This document shows, in pieces, positions 8,015 to 52,169 of a stretch of DNA of 59,416 bases. Numbering within the stretch: position 1 is the stretch's first letter; the number at the start of each line of letters is the position of its first letter. A program made the position numbers and the translations under genes. The notes below the pieces were generated by a model, which was not told where the DNA came from, made no database searches, and was given only the letters and a program-made list of their open reading frames with translations. Source of the DNA: a virus (lineage: Duplodnaviria; Caudoviricetes); IMG/VR virus record IMGVR_UViG_3300025402_000010, positions 1 through 59,416 of that record, one strand, 5' to 3'.

Positions 8015-8023
8015 GGTTTCTCC

Positions 8024-8788: not shown

Positions 8789-8796
8789 GCTCTCTC

Positions 8797-36857: not shown

Positions 36858-36926
36858 GGAGTACACCGATTGGTGGAGAGTATTCAACCAGGTGCCTAGG
36901 GTCTAGGGCCTAGTTGTAACTCAAAT

Positions 36927-36942
36927 TGTTTCACGTGAAACA
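36927..36942. promoter_or_regulatory. parS: parS site 1 (ParB/Spo0J loading site)
   Basis: Perfect palindrome TGTTTCACGTGAAACA, the canonical chromosomal parS consensus. Confidence 0.85.
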
Positions 36943-36962
36943 TATGTGTTTGTCTAAGCATA

Positions 36963-36978
36963 TGTTTCACGTGAAACA
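36963..36978. promoter_or_regulatory. parS: parS site 2
   Basis: Second perfect TGTTTCACGTGAAACA, 36 bp after the first. Confidence 0.85.
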
Positions 36979-37377
36979 TTCCCCGCATGGGGGGATATAT
37001 TTAGCTAAAGCTAACTCCTCCCATTGCATTTATGTTCATTGATGCGTACGTAAGGCATCGCAATACCATACCAATGTATGTTAAGTGGGTGGGTTCTATG
37101 AACCCGAGGTATGCTTGTTGACCTTGATGGCCCTAAACGTATCCTGCCATGTATACGTGCATACATACATGACTGTGCATGGCTAAGCATTTTTCCGTAT
37201 GTTAACGGGTATGTGCCTACATTGGTGTGGTATTGGGATGTCTTAAAATTTTTATGTGTGTTTAGACACACATGACATCCTCATATTCCTGCTCTAGTTG
37301 GATTTATATAGCAGGGGTATGGTTGTATATGTACTTACTAAGTAAGTAAGCTACAAATAGTATCAAAGGAATAACCC

Positions 37378-37596
37378 ATGGCAATAGTAACTGCCGAAGA
37401 GGTGCTGTCCAAAATATTGGCCAATGCCTGCCCTAGCAAACTACTCGATGGTGAGTACAAGTTGTTTCTCATAGAGACACACTGCGTCAATTGGCACGTG
37501 CAAGCCAAAATCATCCAAGAACCCTCGGACGACCAAGGTTGGTTGTTCGAAGTGCGTTCAATCGAGCCAGTAAACGAGGTGGTATATGATGACTGA
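37378..37596 (+). CDS. Hypothetical protein
   Basis: AAAGGA RBS. Confidence 0.6.
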   Translation: MAIVTAEEVLSKILANACPSKLLDGEYKLFLIETHCVNWHVQAKIIQEPSDDQGWLFEVRSIEPVNEVVYDD

Positions 37597-38074
37597 CCCT
37601 ATCCAGGCGTTGTTCGACCGCATCATGGAGGATGCACGTGATCAAAAGAGGGCAGAATCAAGTTATTACAACCTTGGTGACTTGATCGATGCCCTCGAGG
37701 GGATTGATTCAACTCTCCCCGTTGAGTTCACGTCAGCTGATAACAGGTACGGCAACGACCAACCAGGTGAGTTCTTCAGCTGGCGTGGTGACTACCACGA
37801 GCTTGCTCTTGGCTATTGCACCTCTAAGGTATACGACTGGAACACCAGTGAATACATCCCAGTTCCACCGCCCACCGTTGGTAGCTTGCTTGCTCGATGC
37901 ATTGCCGCTGATGGTGCTACCTTTGAGGGTTACAAGGGTGGTGACTTCACAATGAATCGGTCGTGCAGGATCTTTGTAGAGTTTGACCAGTCTTACTACA
38001 ATGGCCCGCAGATTGCTGATGTAACTGTGGTCGATGGCAAGTGCCTCATCAAGCTTGAGAACTGGACTGAGTAA
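37586..38074 (+). CDS. Conserved phage hypothetical protein
   Basis: LGDLIDAL...SWRGDYHELA...FEGYKGGDFTM motif seen in many phage early regions. Confidence 0.7.
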   Translation: MMTDPIQALFDRIMEDARDQKRAESSYYNLGDLIDALEGIDSTLPVEFTSADNRYGNDQPGEFFSWRGDYHELALGYCTSKVYDWNTSEYIPVPPPTVGSLLARCIAADGATFEGYKGGDFTMNRSCRIFVEFDQSYYNGPQIADVTVVDGKCLIKLENWTE

Positions 38075-38297
38075 CAATGTACCATCACTCAGCTCTATGC
38101 AAGTGTGGTGAGTATTACTTGCTTGATGTTTGTTGCGGTGAGTATGTTCGTCGAGTTTCTACTGACGAACTAATCAACGAAGTACATGTTGACATCGGAA
38201 ACCATGCACCTACTGGGTGCAACGATGAGTACCGCAACCATTAAGCAGTAACAATACCCAAGTAGGGTAGTAGTAAACAAACACATGGAGATCCCCT

Positions 38298-38735
38298 GTG
38301 GACATAGTAACACCAAGCAGTGCCCCCGACTCGTTCGGGTTCATACCAATAGATGCTGAGACCAGCACTGATAACGAGTACCAAAATTGGGTTAAATGCT
38401 TGTGCAAATGTGGCAACTGGTTTGAGCTGGACTTTGGTGACGAGACTACGGATTTGATTGTTCACCGCGAACGCCCAGGTAATGAAGCAGTTATCAGTAT
38501 TGTTCTTTCCAAGCCTGAGCTTGAGAAGTTGCTCGAGCTTGTGCAGAAAGCATTGGCTGGGCAACCAGAGGCTACAAAAGAACCAGACGAGAAAGAACCA
38601 TTTCATCCATATCCTGATGCTGTAGAAAAACATTACTGCAGTTATTGTGACTGTGAGTACTACAAGCTTGAGGATGGTACGATAACGCCTTGTTGTTGCA
38701 CTGATGATGAAACAATTGAACAGGAGGAATGTTGA
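38298..38735 (+). CDS. Hypothetical Cys-containing protein
   Basis: GGAG RBS, GTG start, AAGTA hairpin upstream. Confidence 0.65.
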   Translation: MDIVTPSSAPDSFGFIPIDAETSTDNEYQNWVKCLCKCGNWFELDFGDETTDLIVHRERPGNEAVISIVLSKPELEKLLELVQKALAGQPEATKEPDEKEPFHPYPDAVEKHYCSYCDCEYYKLEDGTITPCCCTDDETIEQEEC

Positions 38736-39013
38736 TGAGCAGAACACACATCAAACCAAAGTCCAAACTGTGGTGGAAAAAGGTTGCTGCTGCTTGGGAA
38801 GAGCAAGAGCGCCCGGATGCACCACACGCTGGTACTGCGTGGCCTAAGCAGATAGAGAAGCGGCACAGGAAGCGCACTCTACGAGCAGACAAGAAGGGTA
38901 ATCCCTTTCGTATCTGGTGGTCTGATGACCCACCCCAGAAGCCAGTGGCTCACAAATGGGAGCGTCGAGTACGTAAGCAACAGGTGCTACGTGAACAACT
39001 AGAGGAGGAATAA
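38735..39013 (+). CDS. Basic hypothetical protein
   Basis: TGATG-coupled; Arg/Lys/Trp-rich. Confidence 0.6.
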   Translation: MSRTHIKPKSKLWWKKVAAAWEEQERPDAPHAGTAWPKQIEKRHRKRTLRADKKGNPFRIWWSDDPPQKPVAHKWERRVRKQQVLREQLEEE

Positions 39014-39222
39014 TGTTCATTGTTACTGAATACAACTACGATGAAAACATCGTGGGTGCGTATCATACTCTTGATGATGCTAAGGATATTATCCAAAGCA
39101 ACTTGCCAAGTTTAACTTGGGAATGGTTGGTTGACCCTATCAAACCAAAGAGGACATACGCATTGACTAACAAAGTCATACTCTTTGTTATCGATGAAGA
39201 AAACAGCTGGCCTGTTGATTGA
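39013..39222 (+). CDS. Small hypothetical protein
   Basis: GAGGAGG RBS; IVGAYHTLDDA motif, similar to 53961-54155. Confidence 0.6.
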   Translation: MFIVTEYNYDENIVGAYHTLDDAKDIIQSNLPSLTWEWLVDPIKPKRTYALTNKVILFVIDEENSWPVD

Positions 39223-39285
39223 TCTGATGTTCGCAGTACCAATTACCCAAGTAGGGTAGCAACAAATAAACACAAGGAGATTCTT

Positions 39286-39615
39286 GTGGAAGTAACAACA
39301 ACAAACAATGCCACCGGCTGGTTCGGTGGTTTGCCAGTAGGTAAGTGCACCCGCTGCCAGCAGGATATCAAGATGTACAGCGAGAATCAACCAAGGGACG
39401 GTATGCACTTGCGCTTGTTTGATGGCTACGGCATGTTCACTGACAGTTGGGAAAAACCGCTCGAGGACATCATCCTTTGCCACAATTGTGTTCTGTGGTT
39501 CTTGGAAGGTTTCCCAGAAGAATACAAGCAACAGTTCATAGGCGGTCACGGTCCTGGCGGTGATTGCTCACCTGCTTGCGAGTACGCATTCAATCTAAGA
39601 GAGGATATGCAATGA
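39286..39615 (+). CDS. Zinc-finger hypothetical protein
   Basis: CTRC...GYGMFTD...LCHNC; AAGGAG RBS. Confidence 0.65.
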   Translation: MEVTTTNNATGWFGGLPVGKCTRCQQDIKMYSENQPRDGMHLRLFDGYGMFTDSWEKPLEDIILCHNCVLWFLEGFPEEYKQQFIGGHGPGGDCSPACEYAFNLREDMQ

Positions 39616-39908
39616 AAGTATGGGCAGTAGATACAACGGTTAGTGCTCATGCCCATGAAGAGGGCATGAATATCCTATCCATTAAATGGTTTGGTTTCTT
39701 CAAGGAATTGAAGGATGCCCAAACTTCAGTGGAGCAGTGGTACTCAACCCTTCGGCCAGGCAAAAAAGTCTTGCCCATTGGCAAGGGATGGAGTCTTGAT
39801 GATGATGGCGATTACATTGCCTCGTTCATTGAGTATGACATCATCGACGGTGAGAAGATGAGTCAAGAAGCGCATGTAGTACGCATTTCCAAGCACAAAG
39901 TGCAGTAA
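39612..39908 (+). CDS. Hypothetical protein
   Basis: ATGA-coupled start at 39612. Confidence 0.6.
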   Translation: MKVWAVDTTVSAHAHEEGMNILSIKWFGFFKELKDAQTSVEQWYSTLRPGKKVLPIGKGWSLDDDGDYIASFIEYDIIDGEKMSQEAHVVRISKHKVQ

Positions 39909-39960
39909 CAAAGTAGTACCAGTAGCAAGTAGCTACGCATTTAGTAGAAAGATACACGCC

Positions 39961-40431
39961 ATGAGTGATCTGTTTACAATCAACAACATAAATATGGAAG
40001 AGGGTGAGAACCTGTTTGAGCCTACTTGTTTCAAGTATCGCTTTGACAAGCTCTACCACTTCCACATGGCAGTCGTCGACTGCTGTGACGTATACGCAGC
40101 TGTGCTTATGCAAGCTGCTGAGGCAGGAGGTACATGGGAAATCAAACAGAACATACCAGTGCTGAGGGAAGACATTCCAGCATTGGACTTACGTGCGATC
40201 GATAACCCGCTTGACATTGTGCTGCAATACTTCCAGCGCCTCAAGCGTGACGTGCGTGATGGTCAACTTAACCTTGACATTACGCAATTGATTTCTTGTC
40301 AGGACATACCAGGCAAGATTGCGATGTCATTCAAGCACGTCTTGTTCAATCAAGGACAAGACTTGTTTAACCCACGGCTTCACGGTTGGGGTGACATCAA
40401 AACAATAGAAAGTGAGACATCATGTCACTAA
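39961..40431 (+). CDS. Hypothetical protein
   Basis: 156-aa ORF following an AAGTA hairpin. Confidence 0.6.
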   Translation: MSDLFTINNINMEEGENLFEPTCFKYRFDKLYHFHMAVVDCCDVYAAVLMQAAEAGGTWEIKQNIPVLREDIPALDLRAIDNPLDIVLQYFQRLKRDVRDGQLNLDITQLISCQDIPGKIAMSFKHVLFNQGQDLFNPRLHGWGDIKTIESETSCH

Positions 40432-40700
40432 ACATACAACGACTCATCGATGCAGGGTTTACAGATGAAGACATCCGCGTTGTCTTTACTGCGTTTGAGA
40501 CAACGATGTCTGAAATGAACAAAGCAATTGAAGAGATGAAAGACAATCTTCCGTTCAGCGATGAGATGATAAAGGGAGCTAACAGACGTTCAGAAGAAAT
40601 TATTGAACGCATTAAGTTGTACAAACAACGTTCAACTAATGACATCGATCAACTCTTTGGCATCTGGGCACAGATGGCAATAAACGGTGACGCAGACTAA
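40422..40700 (+). CDS. Hypothetical helical protein
   Basis: Overlapping operon gene. Confidence 0.6.
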   Translation: MSLNIQRLIDAGFTDEDIRVVFTAFETTMSEMNKAIEEMKDNLPFSDEMIKGANRRSEEIIERIKLYKQRSTNDIDQLFGIWAQMAINGDAD

Positions 40701-40791
40701 CAGTTCTCAAGGCCTCACCACTCAACAGTGAGTGGTGGGGTCGAGACCGTAGCTAAGTAAGCTACAAATTACCAAGTAACAAGGAGTTACA

Positions 40792-41094
40792 ATGGCTATT
40801 TCAATGAAGCAAGCAGCACCAGCACCAGCTGCGCAGGGTTCAACCATAAGTAAGTTGTTCCAGGAACGTCGTCTGACGCTCATGGAAAACCCTGGTGTGT
40901 GGTACGAATACAGCAACAATCTGCGAGCTAACACCATGGGAAGCGTTCTTTCCAGCCTTTGTGGTGTCAAGCTCCCTGCTTTAAAGGGAATTGATCGTAA
41001 GCTGTTGCCCTACCAGGTGGCATCACGACGTATGGAAGACGGGACCTATTCGGTCTTTGCTCGTTACGTGGGTGAACAACAAGAGTGGGTATAG
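40792..41094 (+). CDS. Putative small DNA-binding protein
   Basis: LMENPGVW...VASR...VFARYVG pattern common in actinophage early proteins; AAGGAG RBS. Confidence 0.55.
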   Translation: MAISMKQAAPAPAAQGSTISKLFQERRLTLMENPGVWYEYSNNLRANTMGSVLSSLCGVKLPALKGIDRKLLPYQVASRRMEDGTYSVFARYVGEQQEWV

Positions 41095-41188
41095 CCCCGC
41101 TACTGTGTGTGGAACCTAACTCCACACATATCACGCACGTAATGTAAACTGGCTTGGTGGGAGCCAGCACAGAATCCCACCATCTAAC

Positions 41189-41758
41189 ATGAAAGGTACA
41201 AGGTACATGCGTAAACTGACAAGTTTGCTGTTGCTGAGTGCTTTTATTGTTGTCGGTGTTGATGTTAATAGCATTGGCGATAAGGGGCATGCTCCAAACG
41301 CCAGTGTCTATGTGACACCAAGGTTACCTGCTCCCGCATTTCAGGTGCAGGATGTCACGATGGCTAATATTCAAGCATACGTGATGAGCCAACCACGTGT
41401 GGTTGTTGAACCTACGCAACGATGGAACACTAAGCGCAGTGACCCAACAGCAACATGGCCTGATGCTACTGACCCAACGCGGCGATTGCCGATGGCAGTG
41501 CAAGTTAAGTTTGCTTGCATTCGTTATCACGAGAGCCGCAACCATCTACATTCTGTTGAGATACACAGTGGTGCTGGTGGTTGGTATCAGTTCATCCCAT
41601 ACATTTGGGATTATGCAAGGGCGAACATACCTGGTTTACCAGCGTTAGCTTCACAAGCTACCGGTGATGAACAATCTAAGGTAGCAATGTGGTATTACAA
41701 ACGTAACAACGGATTCACTCCCGAGTGGAGTGCAGACGCAGGCGTTTGCAACCTGTAA
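41189..41758 (+). CDS. Secreted/anchored lysozyme-like transglycosylase (Rpf-like)
   Basis: Signal/TM segment (LLLLSAFIVVGV); C-terminal CIRYHES...GAGGWYQF...W...ASQATGDEQ...W...C; start may be the MRKL ATG. Confidence 0.75.
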   Translation: MKGTRYMRKLTSLLLLSAFIVVGVDVNSIGDKGHAPNASVYVTPRLPAPAFQVQDVTMANIQAYVMSQPRVVVEPTQRWNTKRSDPTATWPDATDPTRRLPMAVQVKFACIRYHESRNHLHSVEIHSGAGGWYQFIPYIWDYARANIPGLPALASQATGDEQSKVAMWYYKRNNGFTPEWSADAGVCNL

Positions 41759-41815
41759 GTTATACAGGCGGTATGGGCTCCACCGTGACGGGCCTACTCA
41801 CCCAAGGAGGGCATT

Positions 41816-42127
41816 GTGATTGAATCAATTGACAATTTATCAATGAGCAAAGAACTTATTGAACGTTGGCAACACGTTGAACAAGCACTTACTGAGTGTT
41901 TGGAGCTAGCATTAAAAGAATCAAATGGTCAAGAAGATGTATGGATTCCTGATTGGGCTGTGCCTCTTTTTGAAAGAATGCAGGAAAACACTGATGAAAA
42001 CACTGATGACAATCAGGATGCACGTATCCAAGCTGCGTTGAAAGATTATCAGGAGAATCCTGAAGAGTACACATACGCTGACCTTGAAGCTATCTTTGAG
42101 GACCGTGACCCAGTGGAGTTTCTTTAA
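41816..42127 (+). CDS. Acidic hypothetical protein
   Basis: AAGGAGG RBS; C-terminal DRDPVEFL. Confidence 0.65.
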   Translation: MIESIDNLSMSKELIERWQHVEQALTECLELALKESNGQEDVWIPDWAVPLFERMQENTDENTDDNQDARIQAALKDYQENPEEYTYADLEAIFEDRDPVEFL

Positions 42128-42128
42128 C

Positions 42129-42386
42129 ATGAGTATTACAAACACAATCTCAGGAAATTACTTGGACTTTGAATCCAAGTGCCAATGCGGCGACGAACGA
42201 TGCCACAGTTTGTGGGTTGGCAATGGCACACCACAATTGGATGGCAGTCTTGAGTTTGTTTCAATTGCACCGAATAAAGAAAATGGTGAAGGCGTAATGC
42301 TTCACTTTTCTCAGGTTCTTGAACTGTACAAGAAACTAGATCAGTTTGTTGCATCAGTTAAGTACCACGGTACAGAAAACAGGTAG
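42129..42386 (+). CDS. Hypothetical protein
   Basis: ATG 42129 directly after the preceding stop; CQCG...CH. Confidence 0.55.
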   Translation: MSITNTISGNYLDFESKCQCGDERCHSLWVGNGTPQLDGSLEFVSIAPNKENGEGVMLHFSQVLELYKKLDQFVASVKYHGTENR

Positions 42387-42529
42387 CAACAAGCAGGGCC
42401 GGGTGTTGTACTGCCCGGCTACTGCGATGTATACACGAGCAATCATGGCTGTTCGTGTATACATCGGAGTAGTCATAAACCCTGCTACTCTGTATCAAAT
42501 TAGTAAGGGCAAACATCAAGGAGAAATCC

Positions 42530-42976
42530 ATGAGCGTTAACAACATGAGTCAGATTATTAAGAACGTGCTGGAAGTTACAGACACGGTTCTTGAACGTCC
42601 TGCTACTCGCAACGAAGTAATCAAGGTGCTCGAGCTCATCGAATCATTTAAGATGGGCAAGACAATTGACAACGCACTTCCAATGCCAACACCACAGCCA
42701 GTGGATGTTGTCAAGGTTGAACGCAAGAAGCCAATGCGTCCAGCAACCAGCATTCGTTGGAAGCAGCACAAGGAATGGCTTGACGCTATTCTTGACGGTC
42801 AGCCGCACATCATTCCGTATTCCAACCTTGAATTGGTGATCCCATTCAAGAAGTTTGGTAACGACAACATGCGCACTCGACTGTACCGTGAGGCTGTCAA
42901 GCGTGGTTACAAGACAGCGACTATCTCATTCGACAACAAGTCGAAGTCGTTGTTTGTGCAGGCTGTAGCCAAGTAA
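42530..42976 (+). CDS. Hypothetical (possibly DNA-binding) protein
   Basis: AAGGAG RBS; basic C-terminal domain. Confidence 0.65.
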   Translation: MSVNNMSQIIKNVLEVTDTVLERPATRNEVIKVLELIESFKMGKTIDNALPMPTPQPVDVVKVERKKPMRPATSIRWKQHKEWLDAILDGQPHIIPYSNLELVIPFKKFGNDNMRTRLYREAVKRGYKTATISFDNKSKSLFVQAVAK

Positions 42977-42982
42977 CAGGTC

Positions 42983-43053
42983 ACTGCAGTAGCTCAATGG
43001 TAGAGCAACCTGGTTAACCAGGTAGGTTGTGGGTTCGATTCCCACCTGCAGTA
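42983..43053 (+). ncRNA. tRNA-like RNA with non-canonical palindromic anticodon arm
   Basis: ACTGCAG/CTGCAGT acceptor, GCTC-AATGGTA-GAGC D arm, GTGGG-TTCGATT-CCCAC T arm; anticodon arm is ACCTGGTTAACCAGGT with no 7-nt loop. Confidence 0.8.
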
Positions 43054-43123
43054 CGGTTCACATACCAACCCAGGTATGTGCCCGGTGTTCCCAAGCACCG
43101 TTAAACACAGGGAGAAACATATT

Positions 43124-43882
43124 ATGACCACTGAATTCATCGAGGGAATCCCGGTTCCCCAGTGCTTCATTGACCTTAACGATGTACTTGCTGCAGGTTG
43201 CAAGCGTGTCATCCTCTACGGTCCCCCCGGCACTGGTAAGACGTATTCAGCTCAGACCCTGCATGTCAATGCAGCTGGGTTCGAGACTCTCCTTTGCTCC
43301 GAGGACATGAGCAATGCTGACATTGTCGGCGCCATGCTTCCTAACGAGCGTGGTGGTTTCTCGTACGTCAAGGGCATCGGTCCAATCACCTGGGATGGTG
43401 ACGGTACTGTTGGTGGTCGTCTCGTTGTTGACGAGATCAACCGTGCCAGCGGTGACGTTGTCACCACGTTGATGAAGTTCCTCGACAGTCCGGAGTCGGC
43501 GGTCTGGAAGAATCCTTACACTGGTGAAGTTCACTTCCCACGTGAGGGCTTCTCTGCCATCATGACCACCAACTTTGAGGATCCCAACGAGATCGAGGGT
43601 CCGCTGCGTGACCGCTTCCCGGTTGCAATCAAGATTGACGCTGCTCACCCAGCTGCGTTGGTCTCTGCATTGCCACCAGAGTTGCGCATGTTGGCTGCGA
43701 CTATCGTTGCTGGTCGTCCCGGTGAGCGTGCTTCGCTACGTGCCTGGAAGGAATTCCAGACGCTGCGCAACAGCCCTCTGTTCACCACTGAGCGTGCTGC
43801 CAAGCTGGTATTCGGTAAGATGGCTGACCCCATCATCGATGCCATCCGCATCGGCACCCTTAACACGGAAGTGTCACTGTAA
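43124..43882 (+). CDS. MoxR/CbbQ-family AAA+ ATPase
   Basis: Walker A GPPGTGKT, Walker B LVVDEINR, sensor MTTN, arginine finger LRDRF; GGGAG RBS before ATG 43124. Confidence 0.88.
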   Translation: MTTEFIEGIPVPQCFIDLNDVLAAGCKRVILYGPPGTGKTYSAQTLHVNAAGFETLLCSEDMSNADIVGAMLPNERGGFSYVKGIGPITWDGDGTVGGRLVVDEINRASGDVVTTLMKFLDSPESAVWKNPYTGEVHFPREGFSAIMTTNFEDPNEIEGPLRDRFPVAIKIDAAHPAALVSALPPELRMLAATIVAGRPGERASLRAWKEFQTLRNSPLFTTERAAKLVFGKMADPIIDAIRIGTLNTEVSL

Positions 43883-45345
43883 TGGTTGACGAGCAGAAGC
43901 CCCTTGTAGGGGCAATCACTGCGTTCCGTGACGACGTAGCTGAGCCGATTGACTGGACTATTCAGCCCACTGTGGGTCAGAATGGTGTCGGTGTCGACTG
44001 GGCTGCAAAGGTACTGGCCGTCCCCCTTCGGGGGGACGACTGGTCCCGTCGTACGCAGCTCCGTGAGCTTATCCGTGCTCGTATATCACCTACGACTGGT
44101 GATGTAGCCAGGGTATTGGCCGATGGTTACAAGAACCAAGGGGTCAACAATGCTCTTCTCAATCTTGCAGAGGAGGCTCGTATCAACGCTGTTACTGAGC
44201 CTTTTGCCAAGATTAAGGGTCTTGAGCTTGACTCTACCGGTGCGGAGAAGAAGTCAGGTATCCGTATGGCAACGTCCGGTAGCCCTAACGACTGGGAAGA
44301 TGCAGTCGACTTCACTGTTCGCAACTACGCCAACAAGTCAGCATTCGACTCGTTTGCTGCTGGCGTACGTTCTGTGAACCCAGAGTGGAGTGACAGGCTA
44401 CGTAGGCTTGCTGGTCGCCTTGATAGTATCTTTGAGGGTACGCCGGATGACATTGGTTCTACCATGCCGTATTACTACAGTAGTGACGTGGTTGGTCCAA
44501 GGGGTTACAACAATACTCTTGTTGCAGCCTCTGAGATTGCCATCTATGCCAATGGCAAGCGCGCTCCTAGTGATGTTAAGCAACAGCGCCAGGATGATGA
44601 CGACAAGGCTCTTGAGGAGTATGGTGAGACGGAGCAGGAAACCAACCGTCTTAATCCTGACCAGACAATGCTCGAGGACGAGTTGCCTAACGACTTTGAG
44701 TTCCCTCACGACGAGAACGGAGATTTTGCGGAGCTTGTCATTGACGACACGCTTCCACTATCTGTCCAAGTCGAGGGGTTCATGAAGCGTAAGCGTAAGC
44801 CTGTTCTTGTCGGTCGTAAGATCGGTAACATTACCAGGTTCTACACTGACCCCGAGCGTCGTATCTTTACCCAGAAGATGCGTGTCAAGGGTGGCATGGT
44901 CATCATCGACATCTCAGGTTCTATGTCTCTGTCGCAGCAGGACATTGAATCAATTGTCGAGGCAGCACCTGCTGCTACCATCCTTGCATACAGTCAGACT
45001 CACTACCTTGACGCTAACGCGTGGCTCCTTGCCAAGCGTGGCTGGCGTGTACGTGAGATTCCATCTATCGGTGGTGCTGGTAACGGTGTTGACGGTCCTG
45101 CTCTGGTATGGGGCATCAAGAATCGTCACCCTAACGAGCCAATCATCTGGGTAACAGATGGTGAAGTCACTGCTGACGGTGGTGGTCAGAACGACCGCAT
45201 CATTATTCAGTGTGCTCAGTTGGTCAAGAAGCACAAGATCATCATGATTCCTTCTGTTGCAGAAGCAGTCAAGATGTTCAAGTCCGGTAAGCTTATCAAC
45301 AAGCCTGCCGGTCCGATTCGCAAAGCGCTTCTTGGTCGTCTGTAG
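43882..45345 (+). CDS. VWA-domain protein (MoxR partner, CobT-like)
   Basis: MIDAS motif IIDISGSMS...GGAGN...WVTDG; TAATG-coupled to the ATPase. Confidence 0.8.
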   Translation: MVDEQKPLVGAITAFRDDVAEPIDWTIQPTVGQNGVGVDWAAKVLAVPLRGDDWSRRTQLRELIRARISPTTGDVARVLADGYKNQGVNNALLNLAEEARINAVTEPFAKIKGLELDSTGAEKKSGIRMATSGSPNDWEDAVDFTVRNYANKSAFDSFAAGVRSVNPEWSDRLRRLAGRLDSIFEGTPDDIGSTMPYYYSSDVVGPRGYNNTLVAASEIAIYANGKRAPSDVKQQRQDDDDKALEEYGETEQETNRLNPDQTMLEDELPNDFEFPHDENGDFAELVIDDTLPLSVQVEGFMKRKRKPVLVGRKIGNITRFYTDPERRIFTQKMRVKGGMVIIDISGSMSLSQQDIESIVEAAPAATILAYSQTHYLDANAWLLAKRGWRVREIPSIGGAGNGVDGPALVWGIKNRHPNEPIIWVTDGEVTADGGGQNDRIIIQCAQLVKKHKIIMIPSVAEAVKMFKSGKLINKPAGPIRKALLGRL

Positions 45346-45461
45346 TACAAAGTCTTTGAGTAACTAGATACTCAAGTCACTGGGTGTAGTCACACACGTA
45401 TGAGGTGTGACTACACCCGGATGCACCAAGTAGGTGCAACATTAAACATTGGGAGATAATC

Positions 45462-45839
45462 ATGGAAGATTTCAACTTCGGTGACCTTACCCTCGACGAA
45501 GCAACAGTTTCACGTGTTGCTCATGCAGAGTTTCTTAACTCTATTAAAGAATGGGGTTCCAAGATGGGCATGGTATTACAGCCCTTCATTGGTGTAGCCA
45601 ACATTCTTATGGAGGATGAGATTCCAGAAGATCAGTTGGACAAAATTTCTGTTGCGTTCCCACTTGGTTTGCGCCTTGCGCTTAACCACATGAACTCTCT
45701 GTATGACATCATGCAGAAGGAAGCAATCAAGGTACTCGGTGCACCTTTTGCTATCCACGGTGAGCACCACCCAGAGTGCGATGGCACCAAGGATGGCTGT
45801 GGTCACCAGGACCACTGGCTAGAGAAGGAAGGAGAGTAG
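45462..45839 (+). CDS. Hypothetical protein
   Basis: GGGAG RBS; His/Cys C-terminus. Confidence 0.65.
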   Translation: MEDFNFGDLTLDEATVSRVAHAEFLNSIKEWGSKMGMVLQPFIGVANILMEDEIPEDQLDKISVAFPLGLRLALNHMNSLYDIMQKEAIKVLGAPFAIHGEHHPECDGTKDGCGHQDHWLEKEGE

Positions 45840-45840
45840 T

Positions 45841-46008
45841 ATGAACGAAGCAGAAGCTTACAAAGAGTTAAGCCTTAATCTACTGTACGTAATTGAGGAG
45901 ATTGTTGACGCGCTCAAACCTATTGGTCTTGACTTGTCTTCATTGCCTCACTACGAAGAGATGATTAACAATGCCCGCGCAGTATTGGGTGATAGCTCTA
46001 ACGACTAA
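45841..46008 (+). CDS. Small hypothetical protein (55 aa)
   Basis: Manual translation MNEAEAYKELSLNLLYVIEEIVDAL...; AAGGAG RBS. Confidence 0.6.
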   Translation: MNEAEAYKELSLNLLYVIEEIVDALKPIGLDLSSLPHYEEMINNARAVLGDSSND

Positions 46009-46700
46009 CTCCACGCGTTTCTCACAAGTGTAGTTAGTAACAACGCGCAGTGTATGGTGATGCCCGTCAATTATCATGTAGATAATAGCACCAGCCTCTT
46101 ACCATTGCATTGCACAACGCAGCATAAGGTATGAAGCTTATGTAGTGGTGGTCCAGTAACACTTAAAACTGGGATGCGCGGTCGTGCTATGGACCCAAAA
46201 AGCATAGCGGTGTCATCCACCCCTTAACGGATGAGCCTATACATTATTCATTTGATGTATAGGCGCTGTCCAATGGTGGCGCTGGACGAAGCACCCACCC
46301 GCTAGCAACGTACTGCTAAACTCAGCACATGGGGGAAGCCGGTGCAGGAAAGTGGTGGATGCCTATTTAAAGAACACACGCAGAGGAGCGACAGAATCCA
46401 TACTTATCGGTTGGAAGGAAGAGTAACCGTTGTGCAAGGGAGCGCGTGTACGGTGAAGACGCTCACACCACCTGGACATGTGGTTAAACTGTCCCTTTTC
46501 TTGTTAGCAATGATGTACCGGCTTATGAGCCCATGAGATCATTATTTAACGGACTCACCATAAGGGGAAGTTTATGGAGGTAACCTGAAGCCTACTGAAT
46601 AGATGGGGTAACCAGCACTCAGTCTGGACTGCTACACCGAGGGCGCGGTGTGTAGGGTATGGGTTCCACCCGAACTTCCAACGGGCCCACACAACCCACT
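46009..46700 (+). ncRNA. Candidate large structured non-coding RNA
   Basis: ~700 nt with no credible ORF; long-range helix 46110-46119/46428-46437, many hairpins and at least three pseudoknots. Confidence 0.6.
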
Positions 46701-46717
46701 AGTAAGAAAGAAGCATC

Positions 46718-46960
46718 ATGCAAATTGAATGTAATCAGCAAGGGCCTAACTTGCAAATCAACATCACGTTTGATGAACCTGAACAGTCACGTATTTTTCA
46801 TGAAAAGTTTAATAAAATGCTTGAAGATTTGGCTAATGAAATGAATGGCATGATGCTGACTGTTGATGGTGACAACCAAGAAATTAATAAAGAAGTAGCC
46901 AAGAAAGCTATGGAAGAAGCAATTAATATGTTTGTACCTAAGGAGAATAATGGTAGATAG
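46718..46960 (+). CDS. Hypothetical protein
   Basis: 80-aa ORF starting the next operon. Confidence 0.6.
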   Translation: MQIECNQQGPNLQINITFDEPEQSRIFHEKFNKMLEDLANEMNGMMLTVDGDNQEINKEVAKKAMEEAINMFVPKENNGR

Positions 46961-47360
46961 ACAATTACAATGGAGACGTTCTTATGCGTATGATGATTTA
47001 ATTTGGACAGCAAAAACTAAACCAGATAATCGTTGGTATGCGCACAGAGTAGATTTATCTTTTACTTTGAAAGCTGGTTTTCACGGTGGCATTGTTAATA
47101 AAAATGCTGTTCTTATAGTTAAAAAATGTGCTGAGGGTAAAAAAGTAGCTAACATTGTTGTTATGAAAAAAGAATTTATAAACAGTTATATTGCAAAATC
47201 TTTTTTAGATTCTTTGTTGTATGCTTCAACTATTATGTTTGATACAGTTGAAAAAGGAGAAGAATGGTTCCTTAAACAATTGAATGATTATAAAGATGCT
47301 CCACCACCAGAACAAAGAACTTCTTTGCCAAGTTCAATTAGTGCTGGTTACCCAATCTGA
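46950..47360 (+). CDS. Hypothetical protein, paralog of 48177-48791
   Basis: AAGGAG RBS before ATG 46950; FDTVEKGEEWFL. Confidence 0.65.
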   Translation: MVDRQLQWRRSYAYDDLIWTAKTKPDNRWYAHRVDLSFTLKAGFHGGIVNKNAVLIVKKCAEGKKVANIVVMKKEFINSYIAKSFLDSLLYASTIMFDTVEKGEEWFLKQLNDYKDAPPPEQRTSLPSSISAGYPI

Positions 47361-47406
47361 TAATTGACCGTTTATCAGGTAAAACAACAAGGTCAGAAAG
47401 AATATC

Positions 47407-47796
47407 ATGGATAATGAAATCCAATTGTCAGATGAAGTAAAGCTTGCAATTATCAAGAAAGAACTATTAAACCTAGTTGATATTGTAAAAGTATTATTCA
47501 CTGTTAACACAACTCTTGAAGTTCACAGACAAGAGTTAACAGGTGAAATTCCTGAACAATTTAAGGAATTAATTGAATCAGATATATACAAAAAATCTAT
47601 TCCTCTTGCTATCAATGCAAGTAATGAATTGCTTAATAATCTTGTTGTGTTTACTAATAATTTAGCAGGTGTATTTGATATTGATTTTATATCACAGTTA
47701 CCTACTAATGAACAAGAATTTCTTAATATGAATAAAACAATGCATAAAGATTTAGAAAATAAAGTAATGCGTGAGTATGGTTGGGAGACCGAATGA
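47407..47796 (+). CDS. Hypothetical helical protein
   Basis: 129-aa ORF, AT-rich. Confidence 0.6.
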   Translation: MDNEIQLSDEVKLAIIKKELLNLVDIVKVLFTVNTTLEVHRQELTGEIPEQFKELIESDIYKKSIPLAINASNELLNNLVVFTNNLAGVFDIDFISQLPTNEQEFLNMNKTMHKDLENKVMREYGWETE

Positions 47797-47978
47797 TTGA
47801 TTTAACTAGTAAGATTATTGCTTACGAGCAAGATGAGCTCAGCTATGAGGAGACAGTTGAACTGTTCCAAGAGCTTATTGATAACGGTATGGCCTGGCGT
47901 TTGCAAGGTCATTACGGTCGTATGGCAATAGCACTCATTGAGAGTGGTGACTGCACCCCAAGTAAGGAGAATGTATGA
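47793..47978 (+). CDS. Conserved small phage protein
   Basis: IIAYE...LFQELIDNGMAWRLQGHYGR motif, widespread in phages. Confidence 0.7.
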   Translation: MIDLTSKIIAYEQDELSYEETVELFQELIDNGMAWRLQGHYGRMAIALIESGDCTPSKENV

Positions 47979-48109
47979 GTGATATTCCAAGAGAAGAAGT
48001 GATTGAGATGCTTACGCATATTGAGATGCTTCTTCTTGCAATGCAGGATCAGGATGCGTGGTCGTATACACACATCCTGCTTAAAGCCATCAAGGATGGT
48101 GAGTATTAA
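47975..48109 (+). CDS. Small hypothetical protein (44 aa)
   Basis: AAGGAG RBS; ATGA-coupled. Confidence 0.5.
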   Translation: MSDIPREEVIEMLTHIEMLLLAMQDQDAWSYTHILLKAIKDGEY

Positions 48110-48176
48110 TACGCAAGTAGCGTAGGTAGAGTTGACCGTCTGCCATTATTAATAGGTCAAATGAGAAAGGTAACCT

Positions 48177-48791
48177 GTGTCAAAAGACATGGTTTGGCTT
48201 AAGAAAAAGGACGGTAGAGGTTGGACTTCCAACCGTACCCGTGACGTGATTGACTATGCTTTCACGGTAAGTAACAATACGCCATGCAAAGTTGAGATAA
48301 GAAAATCATGGCGACCAAATGGTAGAGCTAACAATACGTTTGCTAGCTTGACGTTTGAAACTCCTGAGATTGCTAAAGCAACTATTGAGCACTTAGTTAA
48401 TACAGTGCGTGATTGCTTTGACACTCAGACTGAAGGACGTAAATGGTTCTTGGAAACCATGCTTGCTAAGTGTGTTGACGATGGCCGTGCAGAAGTATGG
48501 ATGCCTAACTCTAGCAACACTAGTAGTGTTCGGGTAGGCAAGATGGGGTATACTCCACCTGCTACTCCACCGCCATTAACTGCTATTACTCCACCTCGTG
48601 TAATAGCACCAACCTGGCCAGCTAAACCAACAGCAGAAGATGTTGAAGAGATGATTAATATCATTACTGAAACATCTAGTGCAACTGATGAAGCGACTGT
48701 TGAACCTGAGATTGTTGAACCTGTAGTTGTTCAGCAACCTAAAACCATTGTTATCAATGGTAAAGAAATTCAAATCGGCTGGCCTCAGTAG
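48177..48791 (+). CDS. Hypothetical protein, paralog of 46950-47360
   Basis: GAAAGG RBS, GTG start; FDTQTEGRKWFL; Pro-rich tail. Confidence 0.65.
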   Translation: MSKDMVWLKKKDGRGWTSNRTRDVIDYAFTVSNNTPCKVEIRKSWRPNGRANNTFASLTFETPEIAKATIEHLVNTVRDCFDTQTEGRKWFLETMLAKCVDDGRAEVWMPNSSNTSSVRVGKMGYTPPATPPPLTAITPPRVIAPTWPAKPTAEDVEEMINIITETSSATDEATVEPEIVEPVVVQQPKTIVINGKEIQIGWPQ

Positions 48792-48860
48792 TAAATGTAG
48801 TAAGCACCTGGGTATGTGTCTAAACTGCCCACTTAAACCCACAAACAGTTAGGATACAAA

Positions 48861-49253
48861 ATGAAGTATGCAATTACAGTTACCGCAGAAAACAAGCTTG
48901 ACATCATTGATTTTGATGAATCTAAATCATATGAAACAATCAAAGCAGCTATTGGAGGCGGTACAATTCAATGCATTCACATACCATCATTGGATGTTGA
49001 CATGTGGATTGATGACGAAGGTAAGTTGGTTAATGAACCAGTAATCAATGCGTTTGGTTCTGCACTATGGGTTGACTCATATGGTATGACTGATCTTATT
49101 GTTGGTGACATCATTGTTACTGGTGGTGTTGATGATGAAGGTCATACACTTGGTCTTACGTTTGATAAAGCCGCTAATGTTTACAAGCGAGTTCATGAAG
49201 TTATGAAAAAAGCAATTGCAGAAGATAATGAAATTGAAACCGTAACCAAGTAA
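48861..49253 (+). CDS. DUF3846-like protein
   Basis: IKAAIGGGTIQ...MWIDDEGKL...N...IVGDIIVTG. Confidence 0.7.
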   Translation: MKYAITVTAENKLDIIDFDESKSYETIKAAIGGGTIQCIHIPSLDVDMWIDDEGKLVNEPVINAFGSALWVDSYGMTDLIVGDIIVTGGVDDEGHTLGLTFDKAANVYKRVHEVMKKAIAEDNEIETVTK

Positions 49254-49266
49254 GAAAGGAACATAC

Positions 49267-49908
49267 ATGCCCAATCATGTATACAATTCAGTAACATTAA
49301 CCGGTAGCTTTAGAGACCTTACAAGGTTAAAAATGCTACTTAACATGCCTCATGAATGTCAACATGTTCATAATGATACTGATATTTCACAGTTTAATTT
49401 TTTCAGTTTACTAGCACCAGATAAATCTGTATGGGATGAATACTATGGTGAAGAACCTAGTTATAAAGACCTTGCAGAAAGAGTGCGCCATTCTACTAAT
49501 CATTGGTACGATTGGAACGTTCGTAACTGGGGTACTAAATGGAATGCTTATGACATTGATTACTCAGATACATTTGACAATGATGACATTGATAATAACC
49601 AACACAGTATTAGTTATCATTTTAATACTGCTTGGTCACCACCATATGGTATCATTACTGCTCTTTCTAAAAAGATTGAAGAGCTTAAATTAAACGTTAC
49701 GTTTAGTTGGCACTACGAAGAAGAGCAGGGTTGGGGTGGTGAATTTGAATACGATGGCAACACATTAAGTGTTGTTGGAGAGTGGGATATACCCGCAAGC
49801 CATGCTGATTATCAATCACGAGACAAGGTAGAAAATTGTGTTTGTAGTTGGTCAGACGACATGGATGATTGGTTTGAGGATTGTCCTCGACCAGAAGAAA
49901 GTAAGTAA
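49267..49908 (+). CDS. DUF1281/Api92-like ferredoxin-fold protein
   Basis: MPNHVYN...WYDWNVRNWGTKWNA...FNTAWSPP...YEEEQGWGG. Confidence 0.75.
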   Translation: MPNHVYNSVTLTGSFRDLTRLKMLLNMPHECQHVHNDTDISQFNFFSLLAPDKSVWDEYYGEEPSYKDLAERVRHSTNHWYDWNVRNWGTKWNAYDIDYSDTFDNDDIDNNQHSISYHFNTAWSPPYGIITALSKKIEELKLNVTFSWHYEEEQGWGGEFEYDGNTLSVVGEWDIPASHADYQSRDKVENCVCSWSDDMDDWFEDCPRPEESK

Positions 49909-49913
49909 ATAAT

Positions 49914-50462
49914 ATGGGACTTGATCAGTATCTATACGGTGTTCAGGCACACCCTGATAACACTGATTTTGATGTATCACCAGAAGCTAAGTACCTTGGC
50001 ATCTCTACTTGGCGTAAGCACCCTAACCTTGAAGGTTGGATGGAAAAGCTATTCAATATTAAAGCTGATGCTCAAGGTTATAAAGGTCAAACAGATTTTC
50101 CTGACTCTGTAATTGCTAAGGTTGTTGGTAAGATTGATGAAGATAAAGTTACTCCTGAGTTGCTTGAACAAGCATCTATGCAAGATGATATGCAACAACT
50201 AATTCTTGAACAACAATATATATCTGCTACTGCATCTCTTAATAAGAAACGTATGTTTAACAACCAGTATTTAAAGTTGAACATGGGTGATCTTGATCAA
50301 CTAGAGATGGCAGTTAAGTTAAGTGAATTGCCACCAACAACAGGGTTTTTCTTTGGTGATGACTCTAGTGATGAGTACAAGGAACAAGACCTAGCAGTTA
50401 TTGAAATTGCCCGTGATGCTATTAGGCATGGGGTTGATGTCTACTACCGCAGTTCGTGGTAG
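49914..50462 (+). CDS. Conserved phage hypothetical protein
   Basis: MGLDQY...WRKHPNLEGWM...LPPTTGFFFG...YYRSSW. Confidence 0.75.
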   Translation: MGLDQYLYGVQAHPDNTDFDVSPEAKYLGISTWRKHPNLEGWMEKLFNIKADAQGYKGQTDFPDSVIAKVVGKIDEDKVTPELLEQASMQDDMQQLILEQQYISATASLNKKRMFNNQYLKLNMGDLDQLEMAVKLSELPPTTGFFFGDDSSDEYKEQDLAVIEIARDAIRHGVDVYYRSSW

Positions 50463-50512
50463 AAACGTTAGCAAGTAGCTAACACGCAGTAAACAAACAG
50501 TAAGGAATAATC

Positions 50513-50854
50513 ATGGGTGACCGTGGACAAGTAGAGCTGGTTATGCCAGAAGGTAGCATCTTTCTATATACGCATTGGGGCGCTGAAGGATTGCCTTGGG
50601 TTGTAGCCAAAGCATTAGACCGTGGTCGTAGCCGTTGGGGCGACGATGAGTATCTCAACCGCATCATCTTTTCACAGATGATCAAGGATGAAGTCATGGA
50701 AGAAACCGGCTATGGTATTAGCCTTGGTGAGCATGGTGACACATGGCGTTTAGTACGTGTTGATTATAACGACAGCACAATTACTGTTGTAGACAATGGA
50801 CATTCCGGCCCTGAACTTACATTCGATGAGTTTGTAAGTATCCATGGAAATTAA
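50513..50854 (+). CDS. Conserved phage hypothetical protein
   Basis: MGDRG...LYTHWG...RWGDDEYLNRI...GYGI. Confidence 0.7.
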   Translation: MGDRGQVELVMPEGSIFLYTHWGAEGLPWVVAKALDRGRSRWGDDEYLNRIIFSQMIKDEVMEETGYGISLGEHGDTWRLVRVDYNDSTITVVDNGHSGPELTFDEFVSIHGN

Positions 50855-50863
50855 GGAGCAAGT

Positions 50864-51112
50864 ATGAGTGAAGAATGGCGTGAACAAGCCAACTGTCGAG
50901 GCAAGGATATCAGTATATTCTTTGCAGAGAAAGGAGATGCTGGCATACAAGCTGTTAAGTTAGCCAAAGAACTTTGCAGTGTTTGCGTAGTGCAACAACA
51001 ATGTCTTGACTATGCAATTGACAACAACATTAAAGATGGCATCTATGGTGGATTACCACCTAAGCAACGTTGGGCATACAAGCGTGAAAGGAAAAAGAAT
51101 GCAGTTAAGTGA
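50864..51112 (+). CDS. whiB: WhiB-family Fe-S transcription factor
   Basis: WREQANCRG...FF...AKELCSVCVVQQQCLDYA...GIYGGL; four Cys and the G[IV]xGG turn. Confidence 0.9.
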   Translation: MSEEWREQANCRGKDISIFFAEKGDAGIQAVKLAKELCSVCVVQQQCLDYAIDNNIKDGIYGGLPPKQRWAYKRERKKNAVK

Positions 51113-52159
51113 TTATGGTTTGCTACCACCAACAAACTTGGTAGAAGCATATCTAGTGATTGAGAAGTTACTAGATCGTTGTGACCAACTCAATGAAGTA
51201 ATTGATATTATGGAGGAAGAACTATGAAAGTATATGAAGTAACATGCGGGTTAACCGTAGTGTTGGAAGCAGAGACTCAGGAAGATGCTGAGAAAGCAGC
51301 TCGCCAGTTAGTTGATGGTGAGTTGGGTAGCCAGGTAGGCAAGATGATGTGGTACCAAGTAAAGGATAATAATGAATCTAAGTGAGAAACAATTGCGTTG
51401 TCTTCTAGAAATTATAGAAGCTGACATGGAATATGCTGAGATGACTGCGGACATGGAGTTTCGTGGTTTTCTTGGTGAGCTACACACAGAATTACAATCA
51501 GAGTTGTACAACAAAATGAAAGTGAAGTAATCATAATGGATAATCCAAATGAACCAAAGAACTGTCCACGCTGTAAGCAAATCTATGTAGGGTTCCCCGC
51601 CCTATCTAGGTTGGATAACAAGTCACGCATCTGCTCGCCCTGTGGTATGGACGAAGCATTGCAGGACTTTACATGTGTACCACTAACCAATTTCCTTGAG
51701 GAGGAAGAATGAGAAAGTATGAAGTCACGTTAGTCATGGAGCTAGAATACAATCCTGATAAATGGGATTGGGGTTCTCTCTTAGATTTAAACGTCACTGA
51801 GACACTTGAGTCAGTCAAAGTAGAGGAGTTATAATGAATTCAGAAACATCAATCATCTCAGGTGCAAAGTCATTAGTCCTGTGGGCTATTGATGATGCAA
51901 AAAGGAATGGTAGTTTGGAACACGCTATCCATAACCTTAAGCGCATCTACGCATTCCTGGCAGACGAAGAGTTTGTAACAGAAAAACAAGGAAAGGAGGC
52001 ATAATGGATGAAGTAACTAAAGATAACCTAGAAGAATGGTTTGAAGAGATTGATTTTACTGATTTAGATCAAGATGATCTTGATGAGTTGAACAATGAGT
52101 TGGACAAAGCTCGGGCATCAGTCTTTGAAACATTCCTCAATGAGTTCCCAATCAAGTAA
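51099..52159 (+). other. Run of about seven tightly coupled small ORFs (40-60 aa)
   Basis: Manual reading finds starts at 51099, 51224, 51372, 51536, 51709, 51834 and 52004, mostly with GGAG/GAGG RBS and overlapping stop/start codons. Confidence 0.6.
51536..51712 (+). CDS. Small zinc-finger protein
   Basis: CPRC...PALSRLDNKSRICSPCG...EAL, a common phage motif. Confidence 0.7.
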   Translation: MDNPNEPKNCPRCKQIYVGFPALSRLDNKSRICSPCGMDEALQDFTCVPLTNFLEEEE

Positions 52160-52169
52160 GGAGTAAGTT

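Follow-up and report, generated by a model that had tools for sequence, protein, structure and literature searches.

AAGTA-loop hairpins before small genes of an uncultured freshwater phage and their possible place at mRNA processing sites

The hairpin set and its setting in the window

The stretch of DNA considered here, referred to below as the window, is the whole of the IMG/VR record IMGVR_UViG_3300025402_000010 (Duplodnaviria; Caudoviricetes), 59,416 nucleotides (nt) long and 39% complete according to CheckV; the subject is a set of eight small hairpins, all with the loop AAGTA, found in the gaps between the open reading frames (ORFs) of one plus-strand gene block. On the basis of PHROGs and Pfam, the minus-strand genes between 1 and 33 kb include those for the major head protein, portal, protease and an HNH endonuclease, together with tRNAs, and the large terminase is encoded at 56-58.8 kb, again on the minus strand. 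The plus-strand block extends from 33.5 to 54.2 kb and consists of about 50 small ORFs, few of which were assigned to a family by the same searches, the exceptions being an AAA ATPase, a conserved protein of 487 amino acids (aa) and a WhiB-like protein. The ORFs downstream of the hairpins are mostly without a family, and many are lineage-specific; start codons were taken from ORF lists and not from a gene finder.

No match to positions 38000-51000 was returned by Megablast on the phage collection of GenBank; relatives were retrieved by means of the 487-aa protein and of the protein encoded after the hairpin at 50467; their genomes are fragments, 29-82% complete. The nearest relative, G001, has 122.8 kb, is 82% complete and shares ∼85% nucleotide identity with the window; it also encodes a tail sheath, baseplate, DnaB, primase, a DNA polymerase III (Pol III) alpha-like polymerase, UvsX and a second WhiB. 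The G001 contig stops short of the window part from 33.1 to 38.6 kb, which has a G+C content of 50-53%, and offers nothing corresponding to it. The phage, which is uncultured, would be a virulent myovirus whose host is probably to be sought among freshwater actinobacteria, because of the WhiB proteins and of the freshwater habitat.

A pattern scan of the window for perfect Watson-Crick hairpins around AAGTA returned eight on the plus strand, none on the minus strand and none within ORFs, the last two being the places in which an equal frequency would, according to an earlier note made from the sequence alone, have spoken against the signal. Seven of the eight had been listed in that note with their coordinates, and all were recovered; a further copy near 37335, which it took as degenerate, is in fact a perfect 6-bp hairpin, CTTACT-AAGTA-AGTAAG (37334..37350), made of an overlapping AAGTAAGTAAG run, next to a weaker AAATA near-hairpin at 37350-37364, and ending 27 nt before ATG 37378. 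Along the plus strand it is followed by two copies of TACCC-AAGTA-GGGTA, one at 38255..38269, 10 nt past the stop at 38244 and 28 nt before GTG 38298, the other at 39244..39258, 27 nt before GTG 39286; by GTAGC-AAGTA-GCTAC at 39922..39936, 24 nt (counted on the sequence) before ATG 39961; by GTAGCT-AAGTA-AGCTAC at 40749..40765, 26 nt before ATG 40792; by TGCACC-AAGTA-GGTGCA at 45422..45438, 23 nt before ATG 45462; by TACGC-AAGTA-GCGTA at 48110..48124, immediately 3' of the stop at 48109; and finally by GTTAGC-AAGTA-GCTAAC at 50467..50483, 4 nt past the stop at 50462 and 29 nt before ATG 50513. The genes after the two TACCC hairpins (38298-38735 and 39286-39615, plus strand) are paralogues with near-identical leaders and hairpins, and G001 has one copy.

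Such a number is far from that produced by base composition: against the eight hairpins with a stem of at least 5 bp around AAGTA, 300 dinucleotide-preserving shuffles averaged 0.147 and never exceeded 3, both strands being counted. As a plain word AAGTA shows no enrichment (151 occurrences, 145 expected); as a 5-nt loop it comes first among all perfect window hairpins whose stems have at least 5 bp, with eight occurrences versus three for the runner-up.

Regarding the geometry of the sites, all eight hairpins occupy gaps between ORFs of the plus-strand block, so that their intergenic position on the coding strand is borne out. The spacing of 23-29 nt between hairpin and start codon, stated at the outset for six hairpins, holds for seven of the eight; the exception is the hairpin at 48110, where the distance is 52 nt if GTG 48177 is taken as the start. 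The distance of the hairpin from the stop codon upstream of it varies between 0 and 76 nt. Downstream of the hairpins, the A/C-rich spacer and the ribosome-binding site (RBS), of GGAG type, are visible in the sequence as had been described. The stems have 5-6 bp, about -7 kcal/mol, and those of the window are purely Watson-Crick, another point on which the first description was right. The leaders have common sequence outside the hairpin as well, such as GCAGTAAACAAACA, and a box RGTAnnAA, not boxA-like, stands 0-1 nt 5' of the stem at five of seven sites.

Two of the hairpins, 40749 and 45422, adjoin very strong stem-loops at a distance of 1-6 nt. The first of these stem-loops (40711..40742, plus strand) has a 14-bp stem, GGCCTCACCACTCA-ACAG-TGAGTGGTGGGGTC, ends 6 nt 5' of the hairpin 40749 and lacks a U-tract; the gap containing it, 40701-40791, folds at -39.7 kcal/mol, and the stem-loop would close the segment upstream of the hairpin, as a 3'-end structure or one resembling a terminator. 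The second (45380..45420, plus strand), obtained from the fold of the gap 45346-45461, has about 17 bp, ends 1 nt 5' of the hairpin 45422 and is likewise without a U-tract.

The arms of the hairpins differ from site to site, and what is conserved is the 5-nt loop with a closing pair that is mostly C-G. When nine AAGTA hairpins were aligned, 91.7% of the cells were paired and all six pairs displayed double changes, confirming that the stems covary; the covariation score was reached by none of 500 shuffles, and controls obtained by sliding the alignment dropped to 23-50% paired. The comparison with G001 adds a measure of constraint: at six orthologous sites, the stems have no change in 66 nt, versus 99 changes in 480 nt of the 40-nt flanks (Fisher p = 1.4e-6), the flanks of site 39244, orthologous only in part, are counted in this figure, and without them it is 57 in 400 for five sites. 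The loop is invariant within the window, as claimed; this does not extend to G001, which has AAATA at three of the six sites, including the orthologue of 39922. Every change is at loop position 3, so the motif is best written as a stem of free sequence around AARUA, mostly closed by C-G. Outside the homologous block, G001 has no further copies save one 4-bp match that looks like chance.

With respect to G001, the window has an insertion of 863 nt between the two units with identical TACCC hairpins, G001 being without window positions 38738-39601; the end-points of the indel, 38738 and 39601, are the 3' ends of the two paralogous genes, away from the hairpins. Among the 40 of 843 variant places listed from contigs of four DNA runs, none is in a hairpin, a share too small for use. 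Covariation and stem conservation, both read from aligned sequences, point to a structure under selection for folding; together with the hairpins at orthologous junctions described below, they uphold the proposal of a selected, strand-specific folded signal for a set of genes.

The same gene junctions in related phages

The gene at 50513 is preceded by a small hairpin, 22-37 nt before its ATG, in all relatives down to ∼54% protein identity; still more distant phages that have the gene carry no such hairpin before it. Written as stem and loop, the pairs found at this junction include GTTAGC-AAGTA, GTTAGC-AAATA, CCTCA-TAA, TCCCA-GGT, TCCCA-AGT, TCCC-AAGTA, GGGC-AAATC, ACGTC-GGGA, ACGTC-GGGAT, ACGTC-GTGA, ATGTC-GTGA, CTTGC-AGATA and GCTGCA-AAT, and the counts are 10 different stems and 11 different loops. 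Similarly, the orthologues of gene 45462 follow TGCACC-AAGTA in the window and TGCATAC-TATTTG, TGCATTAC-ATT, TGTACATC-GTT or GTACCA-GAT elsewhere, the hairpins of G002, G004, G006 and G007 having different inner stems and loops. In the sequences compared, then, it is the fold that is conserved across the clade and not the loop, while the lineage of the window has a uniform loop where those of its relatives differ; G002 has a partial uniformity of its own, with the loop GGGA.

In five relatives (G002 and G004-G007), the small hairpin can follow a tRNA-like element. There are at least 13 such intergenic elements, each with a hairpin of 4-7 bp located 2-3 nt downstream, and the order is tRNA-like element, hairpin, A-rich spacer, Shine-Dalgarno (SD) sequence and ATG. 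In each element an acceptor-like helix of 7 bp stacks on a T-arm whose loop is TTCRANY, and in most cases the D and anticodon arms are replaced by a mere 13-19 nt; examples of these anticodon-less forms are L035:9448-9520(+) and L046:3751-3823(-). In an alignment of ten elements, the acceptor and T helices are 97% and 100% paired, with double changes in 10 of the 12 pairs, and one G-U pair is retained in seven of the ten, which points to RNA. ARAGORN made no call on these elements, and neither did the Rfam tRNA model at its gathering score. They are candidate punctuation signals for RNase P and RNase Z in phage mRNA.

The only member of this class in the window is a tRNA-like gene at 42983..43054 (plus strand; Rfam tRNA, 60 bits), which has no AAGTA hairpin beside it. 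Its "anticodon" loop has 4 nt, and with loops of 4-5 nt this gene cannot decode. Counterparts exist in G001 (L020:19228-19320(-)), G002 (L027:10678-10744(-)), G006 (L045:2787-2878(-)) and G007 (L046:12455-12548(-)); that of G002 has lost both the D and the anticodon arm and is reduced to an acceptor plus T-arm mini-helix in the same place.

In another group of relatives (G008, L113/L119/L120 and L117), the hairpin is found about 8-9 nt downstream of the end of an extended -10 box, which reads TGcTATAAT, TGcTATACT or TGtTATACT. At this distance, the predicted transcription start would place the hairpin at the 5' end of the RNA.

As for the hairpin at 48110, it belongs to a family of leaders with the layout of a hammerhead ribozyme: a small hairpin, a second hairpin, and then a stretch that pairs with the loop of the latter. 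Watson-Crick complementarity of at least 5 nt between this loop and the downstream stretch is found in seven of nine copies, and the pseudoknot pairs covary across the family (TTGACC/GGTCAA, ATTAGCC/GGCTAAT, TAGTC/GACTA). One member, at L046:16578-16639(-) of G007, matches the Rfam model Hammerhead_II (RF02276): its 40.0 bits exceed the gathering score of 37, E being 2.9e-7 when a short stretch was scanned, and the match recurred when 145 kb were scanned at gathering score. A second, at L044:13158-13221(-) of G006, scores 29.3 bits, below the gathering score. Hammerheads were missed by a 56-kb Rfam scan in E-value mode and seen in the short-stretch and gathering scans. In both matching copies, stem III is the hairpin CGCC-GGGA-GGCG and the cleavage site comes two nucleotides after it. 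These two hammerheads sit in the 5' leaders of small phage genes; in their sister copies, found in G002, G004 and G006, the core is damaged and the helices are retained, as is the pseudoknot between loop and downstream stretch.

In the window, the hairpin at 48110 is adjoined by the second hairpin, GGTAGA-GTTGACCG-TCTGCC (48125-48144, plus strand), whose loop sequence TTGACC can pair with GGTCAA within 48154-48160 and so form the pseudoknot; AGGTCAA is located nine nt past the second hairpin, and the loop GTTGACCG and its partner are as in G004 and G006. From its sequence, the segment 48125..48160 corresponds to stem I and the loop contact of the hammerhead-like family, and the 48110 hairpin is homologous to stem III, with the catalytic core lost. 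The positions of the core read TTAATAC and ATTATTAAT in place of the CUGANGA and GAAA of a type II hammerhead, whose core also has UH and is joined by three helices, and the core is gone in G001, too. The 48110 element shares with the type II hammerhead RF02276 the arrangement of hairpin, second hairpin and pseudoknot seen in the leaders of the relatives; it differs from it in the missing CUGANGA and GAAA core, and the other seven hairpins of the window have no second helix. The gene downstream, 48177-48791, is orthologous to the genes after the copies of G002, G004, G005 and G006, and the preceding gene is orthologous as well. At the orthologous junction G007 carries a tRNA-like element and hairpin instead of a hammerhead-like leader, which means that the devices were swapped at one junction over evolution.

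Another leader of the block, 41095-41188 (plus strand), contains the hairpin CTGGCT-TGGTGGG-AGCCAG, the loop of which is able to form pairs with CCCACCA, located immediately ahead of the start codon 41189; it is a second pseudoknot-type leader in the plus-strand block.

A possible role in mRNA processing, and its alternatives

The earlier note had left two possibilities, an RNA loop or a DNA hairpin. The RNA alternative is favored, since 48110 belongs to the hammerhead-like leader family and since tRNA-like elements with a kept G-U pair precede the hairpins of the relatives. The mismatches in near-hairpins upstream of start codons, G-T in 42 and A-C in 39 of 213, are noise from chance hairpins. 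With a probability of about 0.5, the hairpins seem to be transcribed leader hairpins that border mRNA processing sites and serve as 5' cap or insulator of early cistrons; this reading in terms of RNA punctuation derives from the tRNA-like elements or hammerhead found at the same places in related phages, where the hairpin adjoins devices that cut RNA or, in the case of the extended -10 boxes, begin it.

In such a model, each hairpin would form the 5' edge of the leader of an individual early cistron within a long plus-strand operon, and the repeated unit would consist of a stop codon or strong structure, the small hairpin, 12-18 nt of unstructured A/C-rich spacer, the SD sequence and the start codon. 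The polycistronic RNA would be cut next to the hairpin, which would then cap the new end, shielding it from exonucleases and from RNases that depend on the 5' end, and would stop neighboring structure from invading the RBS. At the two window sites with a strong stem-loop, a cut between it and the small hairpin would leave a protected 3' end on the upstream RNA and a protected 5' end on the downstream one. More tentatively, and with doubts that prevail over confidence, self-cleaving hammerhead, anticodon-less tRNA-like element (cut by the enzymes that process tRNA) and plain hairpin may be three interchangeable punctuation devices for early polycistronic mRNA, with AARUA hairpins having replaced the first two in the lineage of the window, where they would be read in trans by a lineage-specific endoribonuclease or RNA-binding protein.

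Elements with parts of this behavior are known. The 5'-terminal stabilizer stem-loops of bacterial and phage mRNAs, of the ompA type, in which the hairpin starts a few nt at most from the RNA's 5' end, were reportedly described by Emory, Bouvet and Belasco in 1992, and RiboJ, a ribozyme-plus-hairpin insulator used in synthetic biology, is said to come from Lou et al. in 2012. As in these, a small stable hairpin is at the start of the leader and an unstructured RBS region follows; moreover, the relatives combine the hairpin with a self-cleaving hammerhead or another device that generates an end. Unlike the window set, with AARUA in one lineage, the ompA-type and RiboJ hairpins need no specific loop, and the position of the RNA end is a predicted one here. 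The t-elements of organelle transcripts, which are tRNA-like processing signals (tRNA punctuation), offer a parallel to the acceptor plus T-arm mini-tRNAs placed between cistrons, directly before the small hairpin, in the relatives; the window differs in having only the element at 42983-43054, not beside an AAGTA hairpin, and a cut made by RNase P or RNase Z is putative. Hairpins located between cistrons or ahead of them are as such of a known kind; the unusual point is that a complete set has a single fixed loop and that relatives show the substitutes. No description of such hairpins was found in the literature searched, which was a limited library.

Several points weigh against the processing model. 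The sequencing runs containing the stretch are freshwater DNA metagenomes, and no RNA runs containing it were found. Five of the eight hairpins adjoin no ribozyme, tRNA-like element, strong upstream hairpin or recognizable promoter; cutting of the window RNA at the hairpins, the enzyme and the reason for which AARUA became fixed are all inferred, and at the sites with no adjoining strong stem-loop the cut is pure inference. Around 48110, Rfam gave no hammerhead match in window positions 48070-48210 at E up to 10, nor, at the same limit, in those hammerhead-like copies that are its strict orthologues in G004 and G006. The end to be capped is not uniform either, since a hammerhead leaves the hairpin on the upstream product and a tRNA-like element would leave it on the downstream one, and stems of 5-6 bp at about -7 kcal/mol are a weak block for 3' exonucleases. 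Finally, loop positions 1, 2, 4 and 5 have no change in 24 nt with respect to G001, and AAGTA stands at several orthologous junctions where relatives have other loops; an end-cap needs no particular loop, and its fixation nonetheless speaks against a plain cap. Rather, a loop fixed as AARUA suggests a lineage-specific reader, either a nuclease or an RNA-binding protein.

This is where the main rival comes in, which is not exclusive of processing: the hairpins would be operators, their AARUA pentaloop being read by a phage or host protein that co-regulates the eight cistrons, for instance through translational repression or activation or through antitermination of the boxB/N kind, with processing and stability not as their primary purpose. 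A loop that is fixed in the lineage while the stems vary, with four positions unchanged in G001, fits this, and AAGTA in place of the GGGA, GTGA, ATT, GTT and TAA of relatives is what a co-evolved, lineage-specific reader would produce; the partial GGGA uniformity of G002 can be seen in the same light. Across the clade, on the other hand, it is the structure that is conserved and not the loop, and GGGA and GTGA are ordinary GNRA tetraloops. The resemblance to lambda boxB extends to the 5-6 bp stem with a pentaloop, the 15-17 nt of the whole hairpin, a lineage-specific loop and the location in early transcripts; the lambda pentaloop is GNRA-like, of GAAAA or GAAGA type, whereas AAGTA (AAATA in G001) begins with A and is not GNRA-like. 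The window has eight sites, one before each gene, unlike nut sites, which occur one per operon and twice in the lambda genome; no clear boxA and no clear N-like protein were found. The search for a reader gave no candidate, as PHROGs and Pfam indicated no RNA-binding family in the block, and the only strongly basic small ORF, the most arginine-rich one (38729-39013), is missing in G001, a phage that shares the loops. In addition, the hairpins are 12-18 nt 5' of the SD sequence, a distance at which it is not obvious that protein bound to them would block the ribosome. On balance, operators of this kind appear unlikely as the explanation of the set. The proposal of a promoter acting at the level of DNA, in which RNA polymerase recognizes an extruded inverted repeat as in phage N4, or of some other promoter element, fares worse. 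Promoters of the N4 virion RNA polymerase have a stem of 5-7 bp and a loop of 3 nt, and on the extruded DNA transcription begins at a fixed downstream distance; the window hairpins share with them shortness, a stem length that fits, a sequence-specific loop and a position upstream of early genes in one orientation, and their purely Watson-Crick stems and the RGTAnnAA box just upstream could be added to the likeness. Their loop has 5 nt in all eight, those of the relatives are quite different, and both the homology of one copy to a ribozyme helix and the context indicate RNA. The search of 96 ORFs of the window, a genome 39% complete, and of the 73 ORFs of at least 90 aa lying within locus borders in G001, 82% complete, revealed neither a phage RNA polymerase, whether T7-like, N4-like or multisubunit, nor a sigma factor; a DxDGD-type motif occurs, among long ORFs, only in the DNA polymerase, and three large ORFs without a family (782, 865 and 704 aa) had no match in the Protein Data Bank (PDB) by phmmer. 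Sigma-70-like sites in 36800-51200 are 20, versus 25.7 expected, with none at a hairpin, and the two hairpins that abut large stem-loops leave no room for promoter elements. A -10 box TAnnnT spanning the loop and the 3' arm was also considered and rejected: it fits only four of seven sites and is impossible for the GGGA loops of relatives. A promoter function is accordingly regarded as highly improbable, and the N4 comparison proposed for these hairpins is not supported.

Two further explanations look at what surrounds the hairpins. They could be repeats at the boundaries of gene cassettes, serving recombination and gene shuffling like the PeSLs of T4-type phages or the attC sites of integrons, which would suit their confinement to a block of small, mostly lineage-specific ORFs, the sequence GCAGTAAACAAACA shared by leaders outside the hairpin, and the 863-nt insertion between identical TACCC-hairpin units. 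The ends of that indel are at the 3' ends of paralogous genes and not at hairpins, about 7 conserved nt per site plus a variable stem are too short for homologous exchange, and strict stem conservation with covariation indicates selection on folding, all of which makes a cassette role very unlikely. According to PMC2839356, PeSLs are likewise found in a plastic region, ahead of small ORFan genes, a feature that the hairpins have too; the strong sigma-70 promoter that this paper gives as a defining part of PeSLs is absent here. The start-associated sequences (SAS) of Cluster K mycobacteriophages are a conserved 13-bp sequence located 3-8 bp before the start, at the RBS, and the extended form (ESAS) has conserved 17-bp inverted-repeat arms (PMC3203893). 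Like PeSLs, SAS and ESAS are repeated intergenic signals just 5' of the starts of small genes in plastic regions (PMC2839356, PMC3203893), and they differ from the AAGTA hairpins, whose arms vary and covary with mainly the 5-nt loop conserved. The alternative that looks upstream, namely weak intrinsic terminators or attenuators, or solely 3'-end protectors, of the preceding gene, draws on the stop codon placed 0-21 nt before the hairpin in five cases and on the hammerhead context, where the small hairpin would end the upstream product. It meets with the lack of a plus-strand U-tract after any hairpin, the tail being A/C-rich, and with weak stems of 5-6 bp; the spacing is constant with respect to the downstream start (23-29 nt) and variable with respect to the upstream stop (0-76 nt). 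There are no plus-strand terminator-like calls at the small hairpins, only 38255 being flagged, and on the opposite strand, so that termination or 3'-end protection alone seems a poor explanation, of very low probability.

The devices adjoining the small hairpin at the junctions of relatives make testable the hypothesis that the phages of this clade divide their early operon into segments that are protected and translated independently, and suggest that hammerheads and tRNA-like elements in phage genomes act as cutting signals. If the three devices are indeed interchangeable, phage hammerhead ribozymes, whose function is largely unexplained, would acquire a direct and testable role in operon punctuation. 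The unit of hairpin, A/C-rich spacer and RBS also offers compact natural "insulator" parts.

Further features of the plus-strand block

The block contains a second kind of repeated structured non-coding element, composed of CTCA, a 6-7 bp stem with the loop GGGGAAG, and GAGGTAA. In the window it occurs at 46009-46341 and 46537-46717 (plus strand), the window copy reading ACTCACCATAAGGGGAAGTTTATGGAGGTAAC, and it had no Rfam match at gathering score; elsewhere it is present in G007 at 7916-8789 (minus strand), with five copies about 190 nt apart, in G004 at 6502 and 6666, and in G006 at 58859 and 59139.

The stretch 36858-37377, just before the first gene preceded by an AAGTA hairpin, is gene-free for 520 nt, with many long inverted repeats and a perfect palindrome pair containing GTTTCACGTGAAAC; it folds at -206.6 kcal/mol and might serve as an origin or as the principal site of control.

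Finally, the protein encoded by the ORF 52004-52159 (plus strand) is 100% identical to those of G006 and G007 and is absent from G001; the ORF after it is 94-97% identical in G001, G006 and G007, phages that are otherwise 50-85% alike. By these identities, 52004-52571 (plus strand) looks like a recently exchanged segment.

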